DNA from: a virus
Virus record (IMG/VR): IMGVR_UViG_3300046005_001038
Coordinates: 1 to 64,000 of that record
Strand: one strand, 5' to 3'
DNA: 64,000 nucleotides
Part shown: one piece after another, positions 117 to 64,000 of the stretch
How the letters are laid out: every line of letters starts with the position of its first letter
Numbering within the stretch: position 1 is the stretch's first letter
Notes under the pieces: generated by a model
What the model saw: only the letters and a program-made list of their open reading frames with translations
Databases searched by the model: none
What the model was told of the DNA's origin: nothing
Translations under genes and position numbers: made by a program

Positions 117-216
117 TAAATGCAGATAGGTTCGCTACCGATAAGCCCTTTAGTAAGGTTTCTGCATTTAGTATCCACTATTCACATTATCCAATTACTA
201 TAAGGATTCACAAATT
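117..216 (+). ncRNA. structured 5' leader, copy 1 of homing-endonuclease leader motif
   Basis: 10-bp stem TAAATGCAGA/TCTGCATTTA enclosing two hairpins; homologous to 8855-8951 and 63920-64000. Confidence 0.65.
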
Positions 217-924
217 ATGACAAAAGAAGTAAAATTAAAAGAAAAAGATTTTTATGTTTATACACATTCTCTCGAAGGAGAACCTCCATTTTATGTCGGT
301 AAGGGACTTTTAAAAAGAGTTAAGTTGATTTCACGAAAAAACAAATATCACACAAATATAGTAAATAAATACGGAAAAGAAAATATCATTGTTCGTTCAA
401 TGTTATGTAGGTCTGAACAACACGCTTTAGATTTAGAGGTTAAAATGATAGCTGCTTTAAGAAATGGCGGTGTGAAACTTACCAATATGACAGATGGAGG
501 AGAAGGAGCATCAGGATATATTACATCCGAAGAAACTAGAATTAAACTGTCTGTTGCAAACACGGGTAAGATTCGGTCTGATGAAACCAGAGCTAAAATC
601 TCGGTAGCTGCCACAGGTAGAGTTATTTCTGAAGAAACAAGGGAAAAGCTATCTACATCACATAAAGGCAATGCTATATCCGATGAAACAAAAGCTAAAA
701 TTAAAGCTGCTGCTATTGGAAGGGTTAAGTCTGAAGAACATCGAGCAAAGTTAGCCGCAGCTCAAACTGGAAAAGTCTATTCTGAAGAATCCAAAGCTAA
801 AATGTCAGCATCTAAAAAAGGTCGTGTTATACCAGATGAACATAAAGCTAAATTATCCGCCGCTGCTAAATCATATTGGAAGAAACGAAAACTAGATGAA
901 ATGACTATCGTAACAGTAGAATAA
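217..924 (+). CDS. GIY-YIG homing endonuclease with NUMOD3-like repeats
   Basis: YVY...YVG N-terminal motif, NMTDGGEG, about 7 tandem S.ET(R/K)AK(I/L)S repeats. Confidence 0.9.
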   Translation: MTKEVKLKEKDFYVYTHSLEGEPPFYVGKGLLKRVKLISRKNKYHTNIVNKYGKENIIVRSMLCRSEQHALDLEVKMIAALRNGGVKLTNMTDGGEGASGYITSEETRIKLSVANTGKIRSDETRAKISVAATGRVISEETREKLSTSHKGNAISDETKAKIKAAAIGRVKSEEHRAKLAAAQTGKVYSEESKAKMSASKKGRVIPDEHKAKLSAAAKSYWKKRKLDEMTIVTVE

Positions 925-8821: not shown

Positions 8822-8850
8822 TTGCTTCAATTACAAGCATGATGTAGAAT
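8822..8850 (+). promoter_or_regulatory. sigma70-type promoter
   Basis: TTGCTT-17 nt-TAGAAT. Confidence 0.6.
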
Positions 8851-8854
8851 TTGT

Positions 8855-8951
8855 ATACGGTCTAGTTCGACGGGACGAAACGGCTTTAGCAACCTTGACC
8901 GTATTTGTAAATGCTAATCACAATAACCTTAATGCTATAGAGGAATCAAAG
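8855..8951 (+). ncRNA. structured 5' leader, copy 2 of homing-endonuclease leader motif
   Basis: stem ATACGGTC/GACCGTAT, TAG, hairpin, GAAA, hairpin with loop CTTTAGCAA. Confidence 0.65.
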
Positions 8952-9821
8952 ATGTCAGATGAAAGAAATCATTTAATTTATAAAATAAAATCTCCTTCCA
9001 GTAAAGTTTATATTGGACAAACAGTGAATTTAAAACAACGACTTAATAATCATAAAAATAAAAGGTCGTCTTGCATTGCTATTTCAAATGCAATTCAAAA
9101 ATACGGTTGGGATAACATGACCGTTGAAGTATTACATGAAAATCTTACATTAGATGAAGCAAATGAATTAGAAGAATTTGAAATAGTAAATAATAATTCT
9201 TTAATTCCTAACGGATATAATATGCTTACAGGTGGAGCAAATTCTTTACACACGGAAGTAACAAAAAATAAAATAAGCATTGCTAATAAAGGAAAAAAGC
9301 GTTCTGAAGAACATTGTAAACGAATGTCTGAAATAAATACTGGTAAGAAAATCCCACCTGAAATTATTGCGAAGATAGTTGCTACTAATACAGGAAAAAA
9401 ACGAACTCAGGAGTTTAAAGACGCAATGTCCAAACTTCATACTGGAAGAATCATAAAACCTGAATCTATTGCAAAAGCTAAGGAAACTAGTATTAAAAAC
9501 GGAGGATATACTCCAACACAAGATACGATTGATAAATTTAAAACGTCTTATTTTAAGGTCAATTTCATTAAAGAATATGAACTTTATAAAAGTAAAATAG
9601 ACACACTCGATAATAATATAAGTTTTTCAGCAAGAAAATTTGCTGATTGGTTAGGTGTCAATAGTAAAACAGTTCTTAAGAAAATAGCAGATGGACTATT
9701 CGACGGTTTACAAACTGCTAGAGATAATCATAATAGAAAGTTTTATAATTTTACTAAACCTATAATTGTAAATTATTATGAGTCAATGCACACAAAATTA
9801 TTCGGAGATAAAAATGTCTAA
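8952..9821 (+). CDS. GIY-YIG homing endonuclease (NUMOD3 + C-terminal HTH)
   Basis: LIYKI..PS.KVYIGQT, NGYNMLTGG, NUMOD3-like repeats, FSARKFADWLGV. Confidence 0.9.
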   Translation: MSDERNHLIYKIKSPSSKVYIGQTVNLKQRLNNHKNKRSSCIAISNAIQKYGWDNMTVEVLHENLTLDEANELEEFEIVNNNSLIPNGYNMLTGGANSLHTEVTKNKISIANKGKKRSEEHCKRMSEINTGKKIPPEIIAKIVATNTGKKRTQEFKDAMSKLHTGRIIKPESIAKAKETSIKNGGYTPTQDTIDKFKTSYFKVNFIKEYELYKSKIDTLDNNISFSARKFADWLGVNSKTVLKKIADGLFDGLQTARDNHNRKFYNFTKPIIVNYYESMHTKLFGDKNV

Positions 9822-11658
9822 TAAAAGAATTCCAAGAGAGTATCAAAATTGGGCTATGGAAGCTATTTTTGAATCATGTAAAGAAAAAGATGTTAATCCA
9901 GTTATAGCATTGCCTGTAGGAACAGGTAAAGAGTCTGTTCAGTCATTCTTTATTCAAAAAGTGTTGTTTAAAGCTCCTAGAACTAGATTTCTATGTGTTG
10001 TTGCATCACAGGAATTGGTCGAGCAAAATGAAAAAGGATTGCTTGATGTTTGGTCAACTGCACCTACTGGTGTTTATTGTAGCGGGTTAAATAGAAAAGA
10101 AATTGCACAAGTTACGTTTGCTTCAATAGGTTCTATTGCTAAGAAATATGAATTATTAGGTAAAGTTGATATTGTTATGATTGACGAGTGCCAGAATGTG
10201 AGCGTTGTAGCCACTACGATGTACACTCATTTAATAAATTCATTGAAAGCTGTAAATCCTAAATTGCGAGTAATAGGCTTGTCTGGGACACCTTTTCGAT
10301 TAGGACACGGTTTATTATACGAAAATCACCCTGTATTTAATAAATTAGCTTTGACTATGTGTGATTTTGACGGATATAAATACTTCTTCGATAATTACTA
10401 TCTGTGTCCTTTAATATCAAAAAGAACTGTCACATTGTTAGATTATGGCAATGTGAAAAAAGCGAGTAACGGCGATTACGACCAACATCAACTACAAGAA
10501 GCACTAGATAAAGAATCCGTGACAAGGTCGGCATTAGAAGAAATTGTAATGTACGGAGCTGATAGAAAATGCTGGTTGATTTTTGCAAGCGGTGTTGAAC
10601 ACTCAGACCATATTGCGGAGATGCTAAATACAGAATTCGGAATCCCCACTGTGAGTATCCACAGTAAACTTGATGATACCACTAGAAAACAATACATTGC
10701 GGATTATAAAGCAGGTAAGTATAGATGCGCTGTAAATAATTTAGTGCTGACCGTAGGATTCAATCATCCTGCGATTGATTTATTAGCGGATATTGCACCC
10801 ACAACTAGCCCTGTTAGATTTGTGCAAAAATTGGGACGTTCGAGTCGAATGTTATTTAAAGGAAATCACGATATTTCTACATTGGAAGGTAGAAAGGCGG
10901 CTCAAATAGAAGGTGGTAAAATGAACGCTCTCGTGCTTGATTTCGCACGAAATGTTGATTTTCATGGAAGTCTGAATATGGTCGAACCTCCAAAACCAAA
11001 AGGTAAAGGCGGTGATGGAAAACAACCTGTTAAAACCTGCATTGCTTTTGAATGTGGTTGCAGTTCGTTAAACAAATCCAAATGCGATGTTCACTCGACT
11101 TCGGTAATCTGTAATACTATTCATCATCCGTCAGCTAGGTTTTGTGACTGTTGTGGAGCTGAGTTTGTATTTGAAGTCAAAATCACCCACACAGCGAGCA
11201 ACAAAGATATTATTGCCAAAGAAAAAGTTACTAAAACGGATTTAAAAACCCCTAAACCAAAACTCCCAGACCCTGAATCAGAATGGTATCCAGTCCAACA
11301 CATCGAATACAAACGTCAAAAAACTAAATCTGGTGATATGTTAAAGGTTAGCTATAATCCTTCCACACTAGATGCTGTTGAATGGATTGGATTTGAACAT
11401 CCAGATGGTTCATGGCAACGGTCAGCTTCATTTAGCTGGTGGAACAAACGTATTAGCGGTAAATGTCCACGAAGCATCGATGAAGTATTAAAATATGTTG
11501 ACCAATTACCAAAACCTGCTAGAATACTTGTGTCACAAAAAGGCAAGTATTTAAACGTAAAGAAAGTAGAATTTGCTGATGATTTTGTGATGAGTAGATT
11601 GGTTGAAGTTGAATCAGTAAGTATTGCTGATTTGGATAGTGATTCGATTCCTTTTTAG
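9814..11658 (+). CDS. superfamily 2 helicase with Cys-rich domain
   Basis: PREYQ, GTGK, DECQ, SGTP, LTVGFN.P, QKLGR..R; acidic tail DSIPF. Confidence 0.92.
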   Translation: MSNKRIPREYQNWAMEAIFESCKEKDVNPVIALPVGTGKESVQSFFIQKVLFKAPRTRFLCVVASQELVEQNEKGLLDVWSTAPTGVYCSGLNRKEIAQVTFASIGSIAKKYELLGKVDIVMIDECQNVSVVATTMYTHLINSLKAVNPKLRVIGLSGTPFRLGHGLLYENHPVFNKLALTMCDFDGYKYFFDNYYLCPLISKRTVTLLDYGNVKKASNGDYDQHQLQEALDKESVTRSALEEIVMYGADRKCWLIFASGVEHSDHIAEMLNTEFGIPTVSIHSKLDDTTRKQYIADYKAGKYRCAVNNLVLTVGFNHPAIDLLADIAPTTSPVRFVQKLGRSSRMLFKGNHDISTLEGRKAAQIEGGKMNALVLDFARNVDFHGSLNMVEPPKPKGKGGDGKQPVKTCIAFECGCSSLNKSKCDVHSTSVICNTIHHPSARFCDCCGAEFVFEVKITHTASNKDIIAKEKVTKTDLKTPKPKLPDPESEWYPVQHIEYKRQKTKSGDMLKVSYNPSTLDAVEWIGFEHPDGSWQRSASFSWWNKRISGKCPRSIDEVLKYVDQLPKPARILVSQKGKYLNVKKVEFADDFVMSRLVEVESVSIADLDSDSIPF

Positions 11659-16564: not shown

Positions 16565-17569
16565 ATGATAGACATAAACGATAGACGGTTGATTGATGGT
16601 GAAACGAACAACTTAATGCAAGTATTCCCACTGAAGCACGTTTGGGCTAGAGATATTTTAGATAAAATGGAAGCAAATACTTGGTCGCACAAACAAGATG
16701 ACTTGAGCGAAGATGTCAAACAGTACCGTAGTGGTAAATTAAATGAAGGTAATTTAACTTCTTACAAAAAAGCATTGGCATTTCTATCTAATTTAGACGG
16801 TATTCAGTTTAATAATCTTGCCAATAATATCGGTAAATACATAACTTCACCTGAAGTATCAATGTGTATTAGTCGCCAAATTTGGGAAGAAGTTGTCCAC
16901 GTTAGAGCTTATGCAGACATTGTAGAAACAATGGGTTTTTCACCAGAGGAAGTTTATTGGTTGTTTGAAACAGATGAAATTCTAGCTAGTAAAAATAGAT
17001 ACATTACCGAAGCAAGTGACTTGCTAGGTAGAGAATATTCTGCTAGAAATTTTGTGAAAGCTATTGTGGCTAACATTGCGTTAGAAGGTATTTATTTCTT
17101 TAGCGGATTCTTAACTTTCTTTAATTTAGACCGTCAAGGAATTGTGAGAGGTACTTCTAATCGCATTAAACACATCGCAAGAGATGAAATTACCCACTTA
17201 TGGTTATTTATCACCATGTGGTTTACGCTGAAAGAAGAACAACCCGATATATTCACAGATGATTTAATCAGAGAATGTGAACAAATAATTAGATTGGCTG
17301 TTAAATATGAATGTGAGTGGGGAAAATATATTATTCAAGATGGAGTTTTAGGTCTAACAGATGTGATTATTGATTCATTCATTCAAGATTTGGCAAATCA
17401 AAGATGGAACTCATTAGGATTTAGCGAAGCGTTATTTGTTGATTCTAATAATAAACCTGTTACTAATTTAGCAAAATGGTTTGACAGTTATCTTGATTTG
17501 AATGATACAAAGACTAATTTTTTCGAGGGAAAGGTATTAACGTATGAAACAGAATCTTTGGAGTGGTAA
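16565..17569 (+). CDS. nrdB: ribonucleotide reductase small subunit
   Basis: LDG, EEVVH..AY (radical Tyr), LEGIYFFSGF, RDEITH, NFFE..V..Y. Confidence 0.95.
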   Translation: MIDINDRRLIDGETNNLMQVFPLKHVWARDILDKMEANTWSHKQDDLSEDVKQYRSGKLNEGNLTSYKKALAFLSNLDGIQFNNLANNIGKYITSPEVSMCISRQIWEEVVHVRAYADIVETMGFSPEEVYWLFETDEILASKNRYITEASDLLGREYSARNFVKAIVANIALEGIYFFSGFLTFFNLDRQGIVRGTSNRIKHIARDEITHLWLFITMWFTLKEEQPDIFTDDLIRECEQIIRLAVKYECEWGKYIIQDGVLGLTDVIIDSFIQDLANQRWNSLGFSEALFVDSNNKPVTNLAKWFDSYLDLNDTKTNFFEGKVLTYETESLEW

Positions 17570-18282
17570 TTGTGGAAACTAAAGTTTGCATCAAATGTAA
17601 TCTTGATTTAGATATAAGCAATTTTACAAAATCAAGTCGTAATAAAACAGGTTATGAAAACTCTTGTAAAAAATGTAGAAATATAGGTAGGAGAAAAAAC
17701 AGAGCTGAGTTAAGAGAATCTCAAAATTTTAAATATGTAGAAGGAAAAATATGTTTAGATTGTAGGGAGTATAAAGATAGGGGTGATTATTATGTTAGCC
17801 GTAATTGTACAGATGGATTACGCCCAATGTGTAAGAAATGTGCAAATATACGACATAACGAATATGCTAAAAATAAAAGAAAGACTGACCCTATGTTTAG
17901 GTTATCGTCAAGTATAAGAACATATTTGCATAAATCATTAAAAGCTGGAAATTGTACTAAGAGTCAATTAACTGAATCGTATTTAGGTTGTTCAATTGAT
18001 AGATTCAAGAACTATATTTCAGTATGGTTTGAAGATGATTGGAGTTGGGATAATTATGGTAAAATATGGGAAATAGACCATATAATTCCTATCTGTTCTA
18101 TTAAATGCGAAGATGACGCGAAAATAGTATGGCATTTTACAAATATGCGAGCTGCCAGTATTGCTGAAAACCGTTTAAAGTCTGGAAAGATGTTTGATAA
18201 TGGTACAAATGAAATGATAATTTCAATGCAAGAAGCGATGCGAGAATATGCTGAGTATTCACAATCTGTCAGTAGTTCTTGA
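17563..18282 (+). CDS. HNH endonuclease with two CxxC repeats
   Basis: CIKC..CKKC, CLDC..CKKC, LGCS, WDNYG..WEIDHIIP, HFTN. Confidence 0.85.
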   Translation: MVIVETKVCIKCNLDLDISNFTKSSRNKTGYENSCKKCRNIGRRKNRAELRESQNFKYVEGKICLDCREYKDRGDYYVSRNCTDGLRPMCKKCANIRHNEYAKNKRKTDPMFRLSSSIRTYLHKSLKAGNCTKSQLTESYLGCSIDRFKNYISVWFEDDWSWDNYGKIWEIDHIIPICSIKCEDDAKIVWHFTNMRAASIAENRLKSGKMFDNGTNEMIISMQEAMREYAEYSQSVSSS

Positions 18283-62672: not shown

Positions 62673-62710
62673 AAAAACCTATCTTATCACAATGGATGAG
62701 ATAGGTTCAA
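62673..62710 (-). promoter_or_regulatory. TTGAAC hairpin promoter/terminator element
   Basis: TTGAAC-18-TAAGAT inside AACCTATCT/AGATAGGTT. Confidence 0.6.
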
Positions 62711-62818
62711 GTGGTTGATATTGTTCCGTTACCTGAATATAGGTAACGGTTTCATTAGTTCCGCGCTCTGTCTGTTTTTAACTCCATGTATTACACGGAG
62801 TTAAAGTTTATTTAAAGT

Positions 62819-63919
62819 TTAACCGTGATTCGCAAATTCACCGTGTAGTTCGGTAGATGCTTTGCAGTAGGCGGCGTGTGCTAGTTCAGCGGTGTCGTGA
62901 TGTCCTAAATTTATAAGTTTTCCTTCATGTCTAATTCTAGCTTCCCATCTACCGCTTTTTCTAAGTCTAACTCCTTTGAAGCCAGTAGTGTTATTGATTG
63001 CTAAAACTGTATTTCTACAATTTTCCATACGCGAACATAGGCGTAAGGTCTCAATACGATTATCTAACCTATCTCCGTTGATGTGGTCAATTACCTTATC
63101 ATCAGTAGGTTCTACTCCTGTACATATCCAATATATTAGTCTGTGTACCCGATAACTAAAACCATGTAGGTTTATAACTCTATACGTTTCACGAATACTA
63201 CCCGCTATTTTTCCAGAAAACATAGTGATCCAAGCATTATATGATTTTTTATTTTTAAAATGGGTTTCAGGTCTATTTATATTCCATATTAACTCGCCGT
63301 TATCATACACTAAGCATTCCTTTAAATATGATAAATCTATATTTCTACAATTAGTCTTATTATGCTTAACAGTTGCATCGTCTAAATGTGACCAATCTTT
63401 TTCTTCAGCTTCTTTGCGAGCTTTTATTGCAGATTCTTTATCTTTGAAAAATCCTAAATGGATTATATTCCCTTTAATAGTTATTAAAGCTCTCCACATA
63501 CTACCCTTCTTATCAAATGAAACGCCTTTTGTTCCAGATGTATTATTCTTAGATTCACTGGTGTTATGACAATTTATATCCTGCGTCACATCTCTGAGAT
63601 TTTCAATTCGACTATCTAACTTGTCTTGATTTATATGGTCTATTACACCAACGGGGTCTTTACCAGTATGATATTTCCATATTACTCTATGAGAAGCAAT
63701 AGCAGAATAACCTCCAACGGAGGTGGTTTTATAGCTCATTTTACTTGTACAAGTCGATGCTAATTTCCCTGCAAGTCTAGCATTAAATGAATTAAACCCT
63801 CTGTCTGAATTAAAATGTTCTCTCGGTCTTTCTTTCCAAAACAAATCCCCAGTTTTTTCATCATAATTAAAACATTCATGTAGATATTCTTGACTAGGGA
63901 GCTTTCTTGTCTTTGACAT
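62819..63919 (-). CDS. tandem double HNH-AP2 homing endonuclease
   Basis: two copies of YL.EC..YD..G.L.W, HR.I, IDHIN..D.RIE.LR, KGV, HLG/NLG. Confidence 0.9.
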   Translation of the reverse strand: MSKTRKLPSQEYLHECFNYDEKTGDLFWKERPREHFNSDRGFNSFNARLAGKLASTCTSKMSYKTTSVGGYSAIASHRVIWKYHTGKDPVGVIDHINQDKLDSRIENLRDVTQDINCHNTSESKNNTSGTKGVSFDKKGSMWRALITIKGNIIHLGFFKDKESAIKARKEAEEKDWSHLDDATVKHNKTNCRNIDLSYLKECLVYDNGELIWNINRPETHFKNKKSYNAWITMFSGKIAGSIRETYRVINLHGFSYRVHRLIYWICTGVEPTDDKVIDHINGDRLDNRIETLRLCSRMENCRNTVLAINNTTGFKGVRLRKSGRWEARIRHEGKLINLGHHDTAELAHAAYCKASTELHGEFANHG

Positions 63920-64000
63920 AATTTTGATTCCTTACAGTTATTGGATATTGTGAACAGTGTCTAATGATTGTGGAAGGCTTACTGAAGGCTTTTCGAGTTC
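63920..64000 (-). ncRNA. structured 5' leader, copy 3 of homing-endonuclease leader motif (cut by window edge)
   Basis: GAAAAGC-CTTCAGTAA-GC...CACTGTTCACAATATCCAATAACTGTAAGGA, closely similar to 140-216. Confidence 0.6.

Follow-up and report, generated by a model that had tools for sequence, protein, structure and literature searches.

Three homing endonuclease genes of a phage, belonging to two unrelated nuclease families, are each preceded by a leader of about 100 nt with one shared RNA architecture. Why should such different genes carry the same leader, and what might that leader do? The stretch of DNA analyzed here (the window) comprises bases 1 to 64,000 of an IMG/VR phage record of 79,832 bp (35.7% G+C), which is contained in lake-water metagenomes. 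A megablast search of GenBank phages found no close relative and only distant helicase matches, and the phage terminase had no match in bacterial genomes, which leaves no clue to the host.

Nuclease genes and their leaders

The first nuclease gene (217..924, + strand) encodes a 235-aa protein with a GIY-YIG-like N terminus, in which Pfam recognizes NUMOD3 only and which bears the PHROG label "homing endonuclease" (phrog_314, 2.6e-29). From the YVGKG motif onward, this protein aligns with the 289-aa product of the second gene (8952..9821, + strand), which has Pfam GIY-YIG and NUMOD3 domains; the end of the second gene overlaps the start of a helicase gene (9778-11658) by 44 nt. The third gene (62819..63919, − strand) lies directly downstream of the large terminase gene and encodes 366 aa with two HNH_3 domains and one AP2 domain by Pfam. 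The claim of the preliminary description that one leader is common to nuclease genes of unrelated families holds for GIY-YIG and HNH_3+AP2. Two other nuclease-like genes of the phage, both on the + strand, are without the leader. One (28195-28986; GIY-YIG and NUMOD3) starts 10 nt past a lysozyme gene, and the other (17563-18282; EndoVII/HNH-like) overlaps the end of the ribonucleotide reductase (RNR) small-subunit gene. Both are probably expressed via coupling to the upstream gene.

The three leaders (118-216, + strand; 8855-8951, + strand; 64016-63920, − strand) have the same fold order: stem P1, the letters UA, stem P2, GA(A/U)A(A), stem P3 with a 9-nt loop (L3), and the closing strand P1′. 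Downstream of each junction lie two boxes, X1 and X2, both complementary to the loop, and X2 adjoins the Shine-Dalgarno sequence. In copy 1, sequence reading, the covariance model, and covariation place the three-way junction at 117 to 170 (+ strand). P1 pairs TAAATGCAGA (117-126) with TCTGCATTTA (161-170), UA (127-128) leads into P2 (GGT, 129-131; ACC, 137-139), the P2-P3 linker J2/3 is GATAA (140-144), and P3 (GCC, 145-147; GGT, 157-159) closes the loop CTTTAGTAA (148-156). X1, a candidate decoy, is ACTA (177-180), the complement of L3 positions 4 to 7, with a predicted duplex energy of −2.1 kcal/mol. X2 is TTACTA (195-200; −4.9 kcal/mol) and is followed by the Shine-Dalgarno sequence AAGGA (202-206) and the ATG at 217. 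With the T between X2 and the AAG of the Shine-Dalgarno sequence left as a 1-nt bulge, all nine loop bases can pair.

Copy 2 has the same order of parts as copy 1, whereas its P1, P2, and P3 letters are entirely different. Its junction (8855 to 8904, + strand), drawn from the covariance model, covariation, and the Rfam match described below, consists of P1 (8855-8862/8897-8904), a P2 stem of GTTC and GGAC with the loop GACG, flanked by UA before and GAAAC after, and a P3 of GG and CC closing the loop CTTTAGCAA (8884-8892). X1 (TGCTAA, 8912-8917; −6.3 kcal/mol) and X2 (TGCTA, 8933-8937; −6.8 kcal/mol) precede the Shine-Dalgarno sequence GAGGA (8940-8944) and the ATG at 8952. The window cuts copy 3 inside P2, so that the part within it (63920 to 64000, − strand) holds the P2 end, GAAAA, P3 (GC/GC), the loop CTTCAGTAA (63987-63979), identical X1 and X2 boxes (ACTG, 63958-63955 and 63938-63935), the Shine-Dalgarno sequence (63933-63929), and the ATG at 63919. 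A 5′ arm of P1 had been predicted past position 64000; it is present in the full record as TTGTGGA (64016-64010) and pairs perfectly with TCCACAA (63974-63968).

Reading the sites confirmed all of the statements on the sequences of the three leaders that had been made beforehand. An alternative P2, formed by the invariant TCG...CGA, gave way to the G-closed stem, which covaries. The X1 and X2 regions of copies 1 to 3 resemble a direct repeat, each consisting of a box and TCA(C/A)AA.

Copies 1 and 2 had been described as beginning just after a sigma70 −10 element, and promoter scoring gave the same result for all three copies. The copy 1 promoter (85 to 113, + strand) consists of TTTACT (85-90), a 17-nt spacer, and TACGAT (108-113), with 8 of 12 consensus matches, and its −10 element ends 5 nt before the model match. 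That of copy 2 (8822 to 8850, + strand) is TTGCTT and TAGAAT, again 17 nt apart, and that of copy 3 (− strand), just outside the window, is TTGACA-17-AATAAT. In these three copies the promoter ends 4 to 5 nt ahead of the model match, which itself starts at, or 1 nt before, the core of P1.

Covariation across seven leaders

When R1, a covariance model with copy 2 as its only member, was run over both strands of the phage DNA searched (80.8 kb), copy 3 scored 36.3 bits and copy 1 scored 32.7 bits, with the next match at 16.3 bits, and a broader model (R3) again found exactly three copies in the phage. No fourth copy emerged from these model searches of the phage DNA, in which the best extra matches scored 16 to 18 bits. 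The match at 16.3 bits (genome positions 66815-66910, beyond the window) is a different element, a palindromic promoter hairpin. It lies between divergent genes, where its long palindrome (AACCGTATAATGT...ACATTATACGGTT) overlaps promoter-like boxes of either strand, and is possibly an operator at a bidirectional promoter. A junction-like fold with the hairpin CCGTTACC...GGTAACGG also occurs at 62695-62756 (+ strand), in the interval that immediately follows the HNH gene; it matched the descriptor at about the chance rate (0.6 per shuffled genome) and is probably a terminator.

Related contigs were reached via the large terminase, and a model trained on the three copies of the window only (R2), together with a DNA pattern, then yielded four more distinct leaders (c4 to c7). 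Leader c4 follows the TerL gene of a relative with 86% TerL identity and heads the orthologous HNH gene, c5 stands ahead of an orthologue of ORF 217, c6 resembles copy 2 and heads an HNH_3+AP2 gene, and the divergent c7 (32.6 bits) precedes an EndoVII/HNH-like gene. All seven leaders lie directly behind sigma70-type promoters (8 to 11 of 12 matches, 17-nt spacing, 4- to 6-nt gap).

When the seven distinct copies are aligned, pairing is intact in 91% of cells, compared with 61% for shuffles and 30 to 47% for slid partners, the P1 to P3 alignment columns having been fitted by the model. Double-sided changes occur in 15 of 20 pairs, although the seven leaders all derive from a single group of related lake phages and the changes are not fully independent. 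Leaders c4 to c7 bring in compensatory changes in P1, P2, and P3 and in X1 as well as X2. The L3:X1 pairing lies outside the covariance model, yet pairing is 100% at its four core positions, three of which covary. In six cells, a G-U pair would turn into an A-C mismatch if the opposite strand were read, so the sense RNA is the strand that folds. The covarying three-way-junction leader postulated in the preliminary description is borne out by the pairing and covariation of these seven copies.

Searches farther afield added no members. The strict first pattern applied to IMG/VR gave two chance matches, both within coding sequence; a descriptor scan for the leader ahead of relatives of these nucleases in other phages gave one chance match; and the combined model R3 had no match in 149 loci (∼490 kb) of nuclease relatives in other phages. 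IMG/VR relatives sought via the helicase yielded no pattern match, and none of the 74 loci from a pattern scan of metagenomes was matched by the model.

The loop and both boxes change in concert. Between copy 3 and c4, which occupy the same locus in this phage and a relative, the loop changes from C to T and both boxes change from G to A; copy 1 and c5 differ in one loop letter (C/T) and in the matching letter (G/A) of both boxes; and the c7 loop, ACTTATCAC, is accompanied by the boxes GATAA and TGATAA. Complementarity to the leader's own tail as high as that of the seven leaders was reached by 6 of 5,000 permuted tails. X1 lies 6 to 9 nt behind P1′ (7 to 9 nt on the commoner P1 register) and X2 lies 25 to 28 nt behind it. 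The loop-box helices are short (4 to 6 bp, or 9 bp with a bulge) and weak. In every nuclease leader the predicted L3:X2 duplex is slightly more stable than L3:X1 (−4.4 to −7.0 versus −2.1 to −6.3 kcal/mol), and in five of the seven copies the L3:X2 helix extends into the Shine-Dalgarno sequence across a 1-nt bulge. Such a bulge lets L3 reach the AAG of UAAGGA in copies 1 and 3, c4, and c5, and the bulged helix pairs all nine loop bases in c4 as in copy 1; copies 2 and c6 have no clean run of X2 into the Shine-Dalgarno sequence.

Relationship to the int-alpA RNA

An Rfam scan of the whole window at gathering cut-offs returned no match, and with ARAGORN likewise empty, a group I intron, a tRNA-like gene, and a known ribozyme were rejected as candidates. 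In a permissive Rfam search, the best match of copy 2 was int-alpA (RF02996; 23.3 bits, E = 0.0036), and c6 matched the same family at 28.8 bits, both below the gathering cut-off of 35.8 bits. Copies 1 and 3, searched singly, had no int-alpA match at E ≤ 10, nor had c4, c5, and c7 in a pooled search of 12.4 kb, which carried a higher reporting floor. The earlier statement that the leader belongs to no named RNA family does not stand. Given the two sub-threshold matches and an anatomy shared with 19 int-alpA matches, the phage leaders are, as judged from sequence and predicted fold, an AT-rich, divergent variant of int-alpA.

These 19 matches (18 above the cut-off; here called canonical) were fetched from 151 Gammaproteobacteria genomes. 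Copy 2 and c6 align to int-alpA in the same order, P1 - UA - P2 - GAAAA - P3 - CU - P1′. More generally, canonical and phage RNAs have in common a P1 of 7 to 8 bp, the junction letters UA, GAAA(A), and (C)U, a P2 that starts with G, a P3 loop of about 9 nt, a U/A-rich linker, and the boxes X1 and X2, both complementary to the P3 loop, followed by the start codon. The two sets likewise share both P2 variants (GNNC-GACG-GNNC and GGG-UAGCU-CCY) and the P2 loops GACG and UAGCU/UCGCU. All seven phage copies keep the junction order, UA, and GA(A/U)A(A), with U, CU, TT, or AT before P1′, and a joint alignment with five canonical members retains the junction columns. In a reciprocal test, model R2 placed 12 of its 13 best matches exactly on Rfam-annotated int-alpA sites, corresponding to 12 of the 19 loci, with weak E-values (0.02 to 4.3). 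A consensus-derived int-alpA pattern in genome contigs gave 33 loci, with no int-alpA in 18 Rfam-scanned or in 4 genomes searched, and Escherichia coli CFT073 has no int-alpA.

The canonical loop is anti-Shine-Dalgarno-like (CCUUC or CCCUU; e.g., ACCUUCA and CACCCUUA). X1, which is the end of the Rfam model ("AgGG"), lies 5 to 10 nt behind P1′ in 17 of 19 matches. X2 lies 19 to 30 nt behind P1′ in most, usually in or beside a small hairpin of variable stem letters, and is the Shine-Dalgarno sequence of the next ORF in 16 to 17 of the 19 (tails read by eye), with the start codon 4 to 9 nt behind it in most. Loop and boxes covary here as well (CCCUC/GAGGG, CCUGA/UCAGG, and CUCUUCA/UGAAGAG), the predicted stabilities of L3:X1 and L3:X2 are about equal, and the own-tail complementarity of the 19 RNAs was reached by none of 5,000 permutations. 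The proposal that the loop is complementary to two alternative downstream boxes is supported by both the seven leaders and the 19 int-alpA matches.

Canonical matches lie in the order integrase, RNA, ORF without a Pfam family, and AlpA, and in 16 of 19 loci the RNA is sense-upstream of an ORF; no ORF follows the RNA in two or three of the 19. This integrase-alpA setting is absent for the phage leaders, whose neighbors are terminase, helicase, and other phage genes. The ORFs behind canonical int-alpA in eight loci (L273, L274, L275, L279, L287, L288, L289, and L290) encode 150 to 330 aa, are mutually different, and lie between the integrase gene and alpA; they matched no significant Pfam family and gave one weak sub-threshold match to HTH_32. 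The position between the integrase gene and alpA is an unexplored gene slot in integrative islands. The phage copies differ from the canonical RNAs in scoring below the Rfam cut-off, in their AT-rich composition, and in a P3 of 2 to 4 bp rather than 5 to 6 bp. Their loop is not anti-Shine-Dalgarno-like and pairs with a box beside the Shine-Dalgarno sequence, whereas the canonical loop pairs with the Shine-Dalgarno sequence itself. They also head homing endonuclease genes in a phage that has genes for replication and for the virion, in contrast to an ORF without a Pfam family between integrase and alpA.

The behavior of X2 bears on whether the loop needs two partners at all. The junction might be a static 5′-terminal structure, locked by an L3:X1 pseudoknot, that protects the mRNA from 5′-end-dependent decay or insulates the ribosome-binding site, with X2 resembling X1 merely through an old duplication of the tail. 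5′-terminal stem-loops do stabilize mRNA in enterobacteria, P1 starts at about the predicted transcript start in all seven copies, and the likeness of the two box regions to a direct repeat would fit such a duplication. We nevertheless consider this explanation unlikely: X2 independently tracks every loop change (between copy 3 and c4, between copy 1 and c5, in c7, and among the 19 canonical RNAs), which means that selection keeps X2 complementary to the loop beyond its likeness to X1, and in the canonical RNAs X2 is the Shine-Dalgarno sequence itself.

The int-alpA motif reportedly stems from the survey of 224 candidates by Weinberg and colleagues in 2017 (PMC5737381), whose main text does not name it, and our literature search found no functional study of it. 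Rfam types the family as "Gene; sRNA" and not as a cis-regulator. In keeping with that type, the junction and the U-rich tract behind P1′ could end the transcript, so that the RNA would be an attenuator or a trans-acting small RNA whose loop pairs with X2 of full-length or sibling mRNAs. The GC-rich P1 and subsequent U-run of the canonical members, and the two or three matches that lack an ORF, speak for such a role. The phage P1 is AT-rich, however, and is followed by an interrupted tract (UUUAGUA, UCAUUAGA), making for poor terminators; the boxes match the loop of their own copy rather than a shared loop, which fits action in cis; and the leader is always joined to an ORF in the same orientation. 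On this evidence a role in trans or in attenuation seems quite improbable. Much the same low probability attaches to the junction being primarily a platform for a protein, be it the nuclease itself or a shared factor of host or phage origin, that represses or activates translation, with loop-box pairing secondary. The constancy of the junction letters (UA, GAAA, CU) and of the P2 loops (GACG, UAGCU) from GC-rich islands to AT-rich phages exceeds what a plain fold needs and would be accounted for by a bound protein. Against this, the downstream proteins are unrelated (GIY-YIG, HNH_3+AP2, EndoVII-like, and island ORFs), so that autoregulation by each product is unlikely, and the covariation of two boxes with the loop would be left unexplained.

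Cassette modularity and a candidate translational gate

The homing-endonuclease-family nucleases vary by locus among the relatives, as judged by Pfam and PHROG. Leaders c6 and copy 2 occupy the same locus, between a Cas4-like exonuclease gene and the helicase gene, which holds an HNH_3+AP2 gene in the relative (G011) and a GIY-YIG gene in this phage; similarity stops at the start codon. The suggestion that the leader moves between endonuclease families thus agrees with one leader type heading both families at one locus. The unit of leader and GIY-YIG gene is found at different loci in genomes G000 and G012: c5 and its GIY-YIG gene stand upstream of the terminase module in G012, and copy 1 stands elsewhere in this phage. 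In G012, the HNH gene after TerL is without a leader. Leaders themselves can be mosaic, as in c4, where P1 is copy-1-like and P2 is copy-3-like. By nuclease family and variable locus, leader and nuclease gene together are classed, on sequence grounds, as a free-standing homing endonuclease gene cassette. The presence of one leader type ahead of different nuclease families at one locus suggests that the leader belongs to the mobile unit or serves as a recombination handle through which nuclease ORFs are exchanged.

Sequencing runs contain further forms of these loci. In run X3 (depth 9), which comes from another lake sample, one DNA contig connects position 30 with 987 and so lacks the promoter, leader, and nuclease gene of copy 1. 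This junction weakly hints at a cassette-less allele, its flank being only 27 nt. In freshwater metatranscriptome contigs (runs X15 and X16; window positions 225-306), the end of a c5-type leader (…CTACTGTAAGGAATCAAAAGATG) leads into a diverged ORF-217-like gene. A DNA run contains this c5-type form as well, so these RNA-library contigs cannot show transcription, transcript starts, or strand, and the parts of the 3-kb stretch that are uncovered in those runs have no evidential value. In G011, the HNH gene that c6 precedes shares 8 nt with the helicase gene. Because the nuclease genes behind both copy 2 and c6 overlap the helicase gene, these two leaders may also influence helicase expression through coupling.

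Mosaic leaders, and one leader type ahead of different nuclease genes, raise the question of whether the conserved sequence acts as DNA, whether as a recombination substrate or homing site, as an operator, or simply as a repeat left by recent duplication, with the RNA fold incidental. Such a reading is very improbable, since stems that are wholly different in sequence stay paired, G-U pairs make the fold strand-specific, all seven phage copies keep one orientation and a constant place between promoter and start codon, and the RNA lies sense-upstream of an ORF in 16 of the 19 canonical loci.

With moderate confidence, and leaning on the predicted pairings, we favor the interpretation that the leader is a translational gate acting in cis to limit nuclease output, in which L3 toggles between a decoy, X1, and the ribosome-binding region at X2. 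Each element would be the 5′ leader of a self-contained cassette made up of promoter, leader, Shine-Dalgarno sequence, and ORF. The transcript is predicted to start at, or within a base or two of, P1, so that its first ∼55 nt would fold into the three-way junction with its conserved letters UA, GAAA(A), and U/CU. L3 could then pair with the tail in either of two ways, each excluding the other. X1, 7 to 9 nt behind P1′, would be transcribed first and close to the junction and would serve as the decoy. Pairing of L3 with X2 would hide the ribosome-binding region, whereas pairing with X1 would leave it free, and the leader would thereby set or gate the translation of a potentially harmful nuclease. 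The balance might be set by the order in which the nascent RNA folds, by temperature, or by a factor or ligand binding at the conserved junction. We infer the control of translation by pairing, which of the two states is "on," and what, if anything, shifts the balance between them. The translational switch proposed in the preliminary description is thus plausible, and it would apply throughout the int-alpA family.

Several observations speak against an L3 gate. A small hairpin (UCC/GGA) could mask the Shine-Dalgarno sequence without L3, the two nuclease genes at 17563-18282 and 28195-28986 of the same phage manage without a leader, and the Rfam type of int-alpA is that of an sRNA gene. We prefer the gate over the rival explanations because none of them explains as well why both boxes track their own loop.

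Regulation of this kind has a precedent in phages. Homing endonuclease genes of the T4 family (I-TevI, I-TevII, I-TevIII, segB, and mobE of Aeh1) are repressed by RNA structures that sequester the ribosome-binding site (PMC2988022). Those hairpins are simple and gene specific, are present only in read-through transcripts, and are bypassed by a late promoter that lies within the hairpin (PMC2988022). The T4-type hairpins and the leaders described here are both leader RNA structures of phage homing endonuclease genes, placed to limit ribosome access, and the rationale in both would be to keep the nuclease scarce. They have no sequence or structural homology, and the present leader differs in belonging to the transcript of the cassette itself and in consisting of a three-way junction, conserved and portable, plus a decoy box. 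By analogy, then, the logic of the gate has a T4-type precedent, whereas the fold and the decoy box are without precedent there.

A second comparison is with riboswitches. In the translational riboswitches preQ1-II and SAM-II, a loop-tail pseudoknot hides the Shine-Dalgarno sequence. The phage leader resembles them in its 5′ position, in a loop-to-tail pseudoknot at or abutting the Shine-Dalgarno sequence, and in conserved unpaired junction letters; it differs in that the decoy X1 has no counterpart in them and that no ligand is predicted for it. The leaders matched no Rfam riboswitch family at curated cut-offs or among the sub-threshold matches listed. It is conceivable, if doubtful, that the conserved junction is a sensor and that a host metabolite or factor bound at the three-way junction sets whether the P3 loop pairs with X1 or with X2. 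If so, the host would have to be in a particular state for phages and integrative elements to translate their nucleases and island genes, and int-alpA would be an orphan riboswitch-like class, a portable expression cassette passed among mobile elements.

For the int-alpA family, the AT-rich variant that heads homing endonuclease cassettes in lake phages provides a new context, and a loop that covaries with two boxes, one of them at or abutting the Shine-Dalgarno sequence, offers this orphan RNA a testable mechanism. For phages, the leader adds to the T4-type hairpins a second, portable way in which selfish nuclease genes may stay at a tolerable level of expression.
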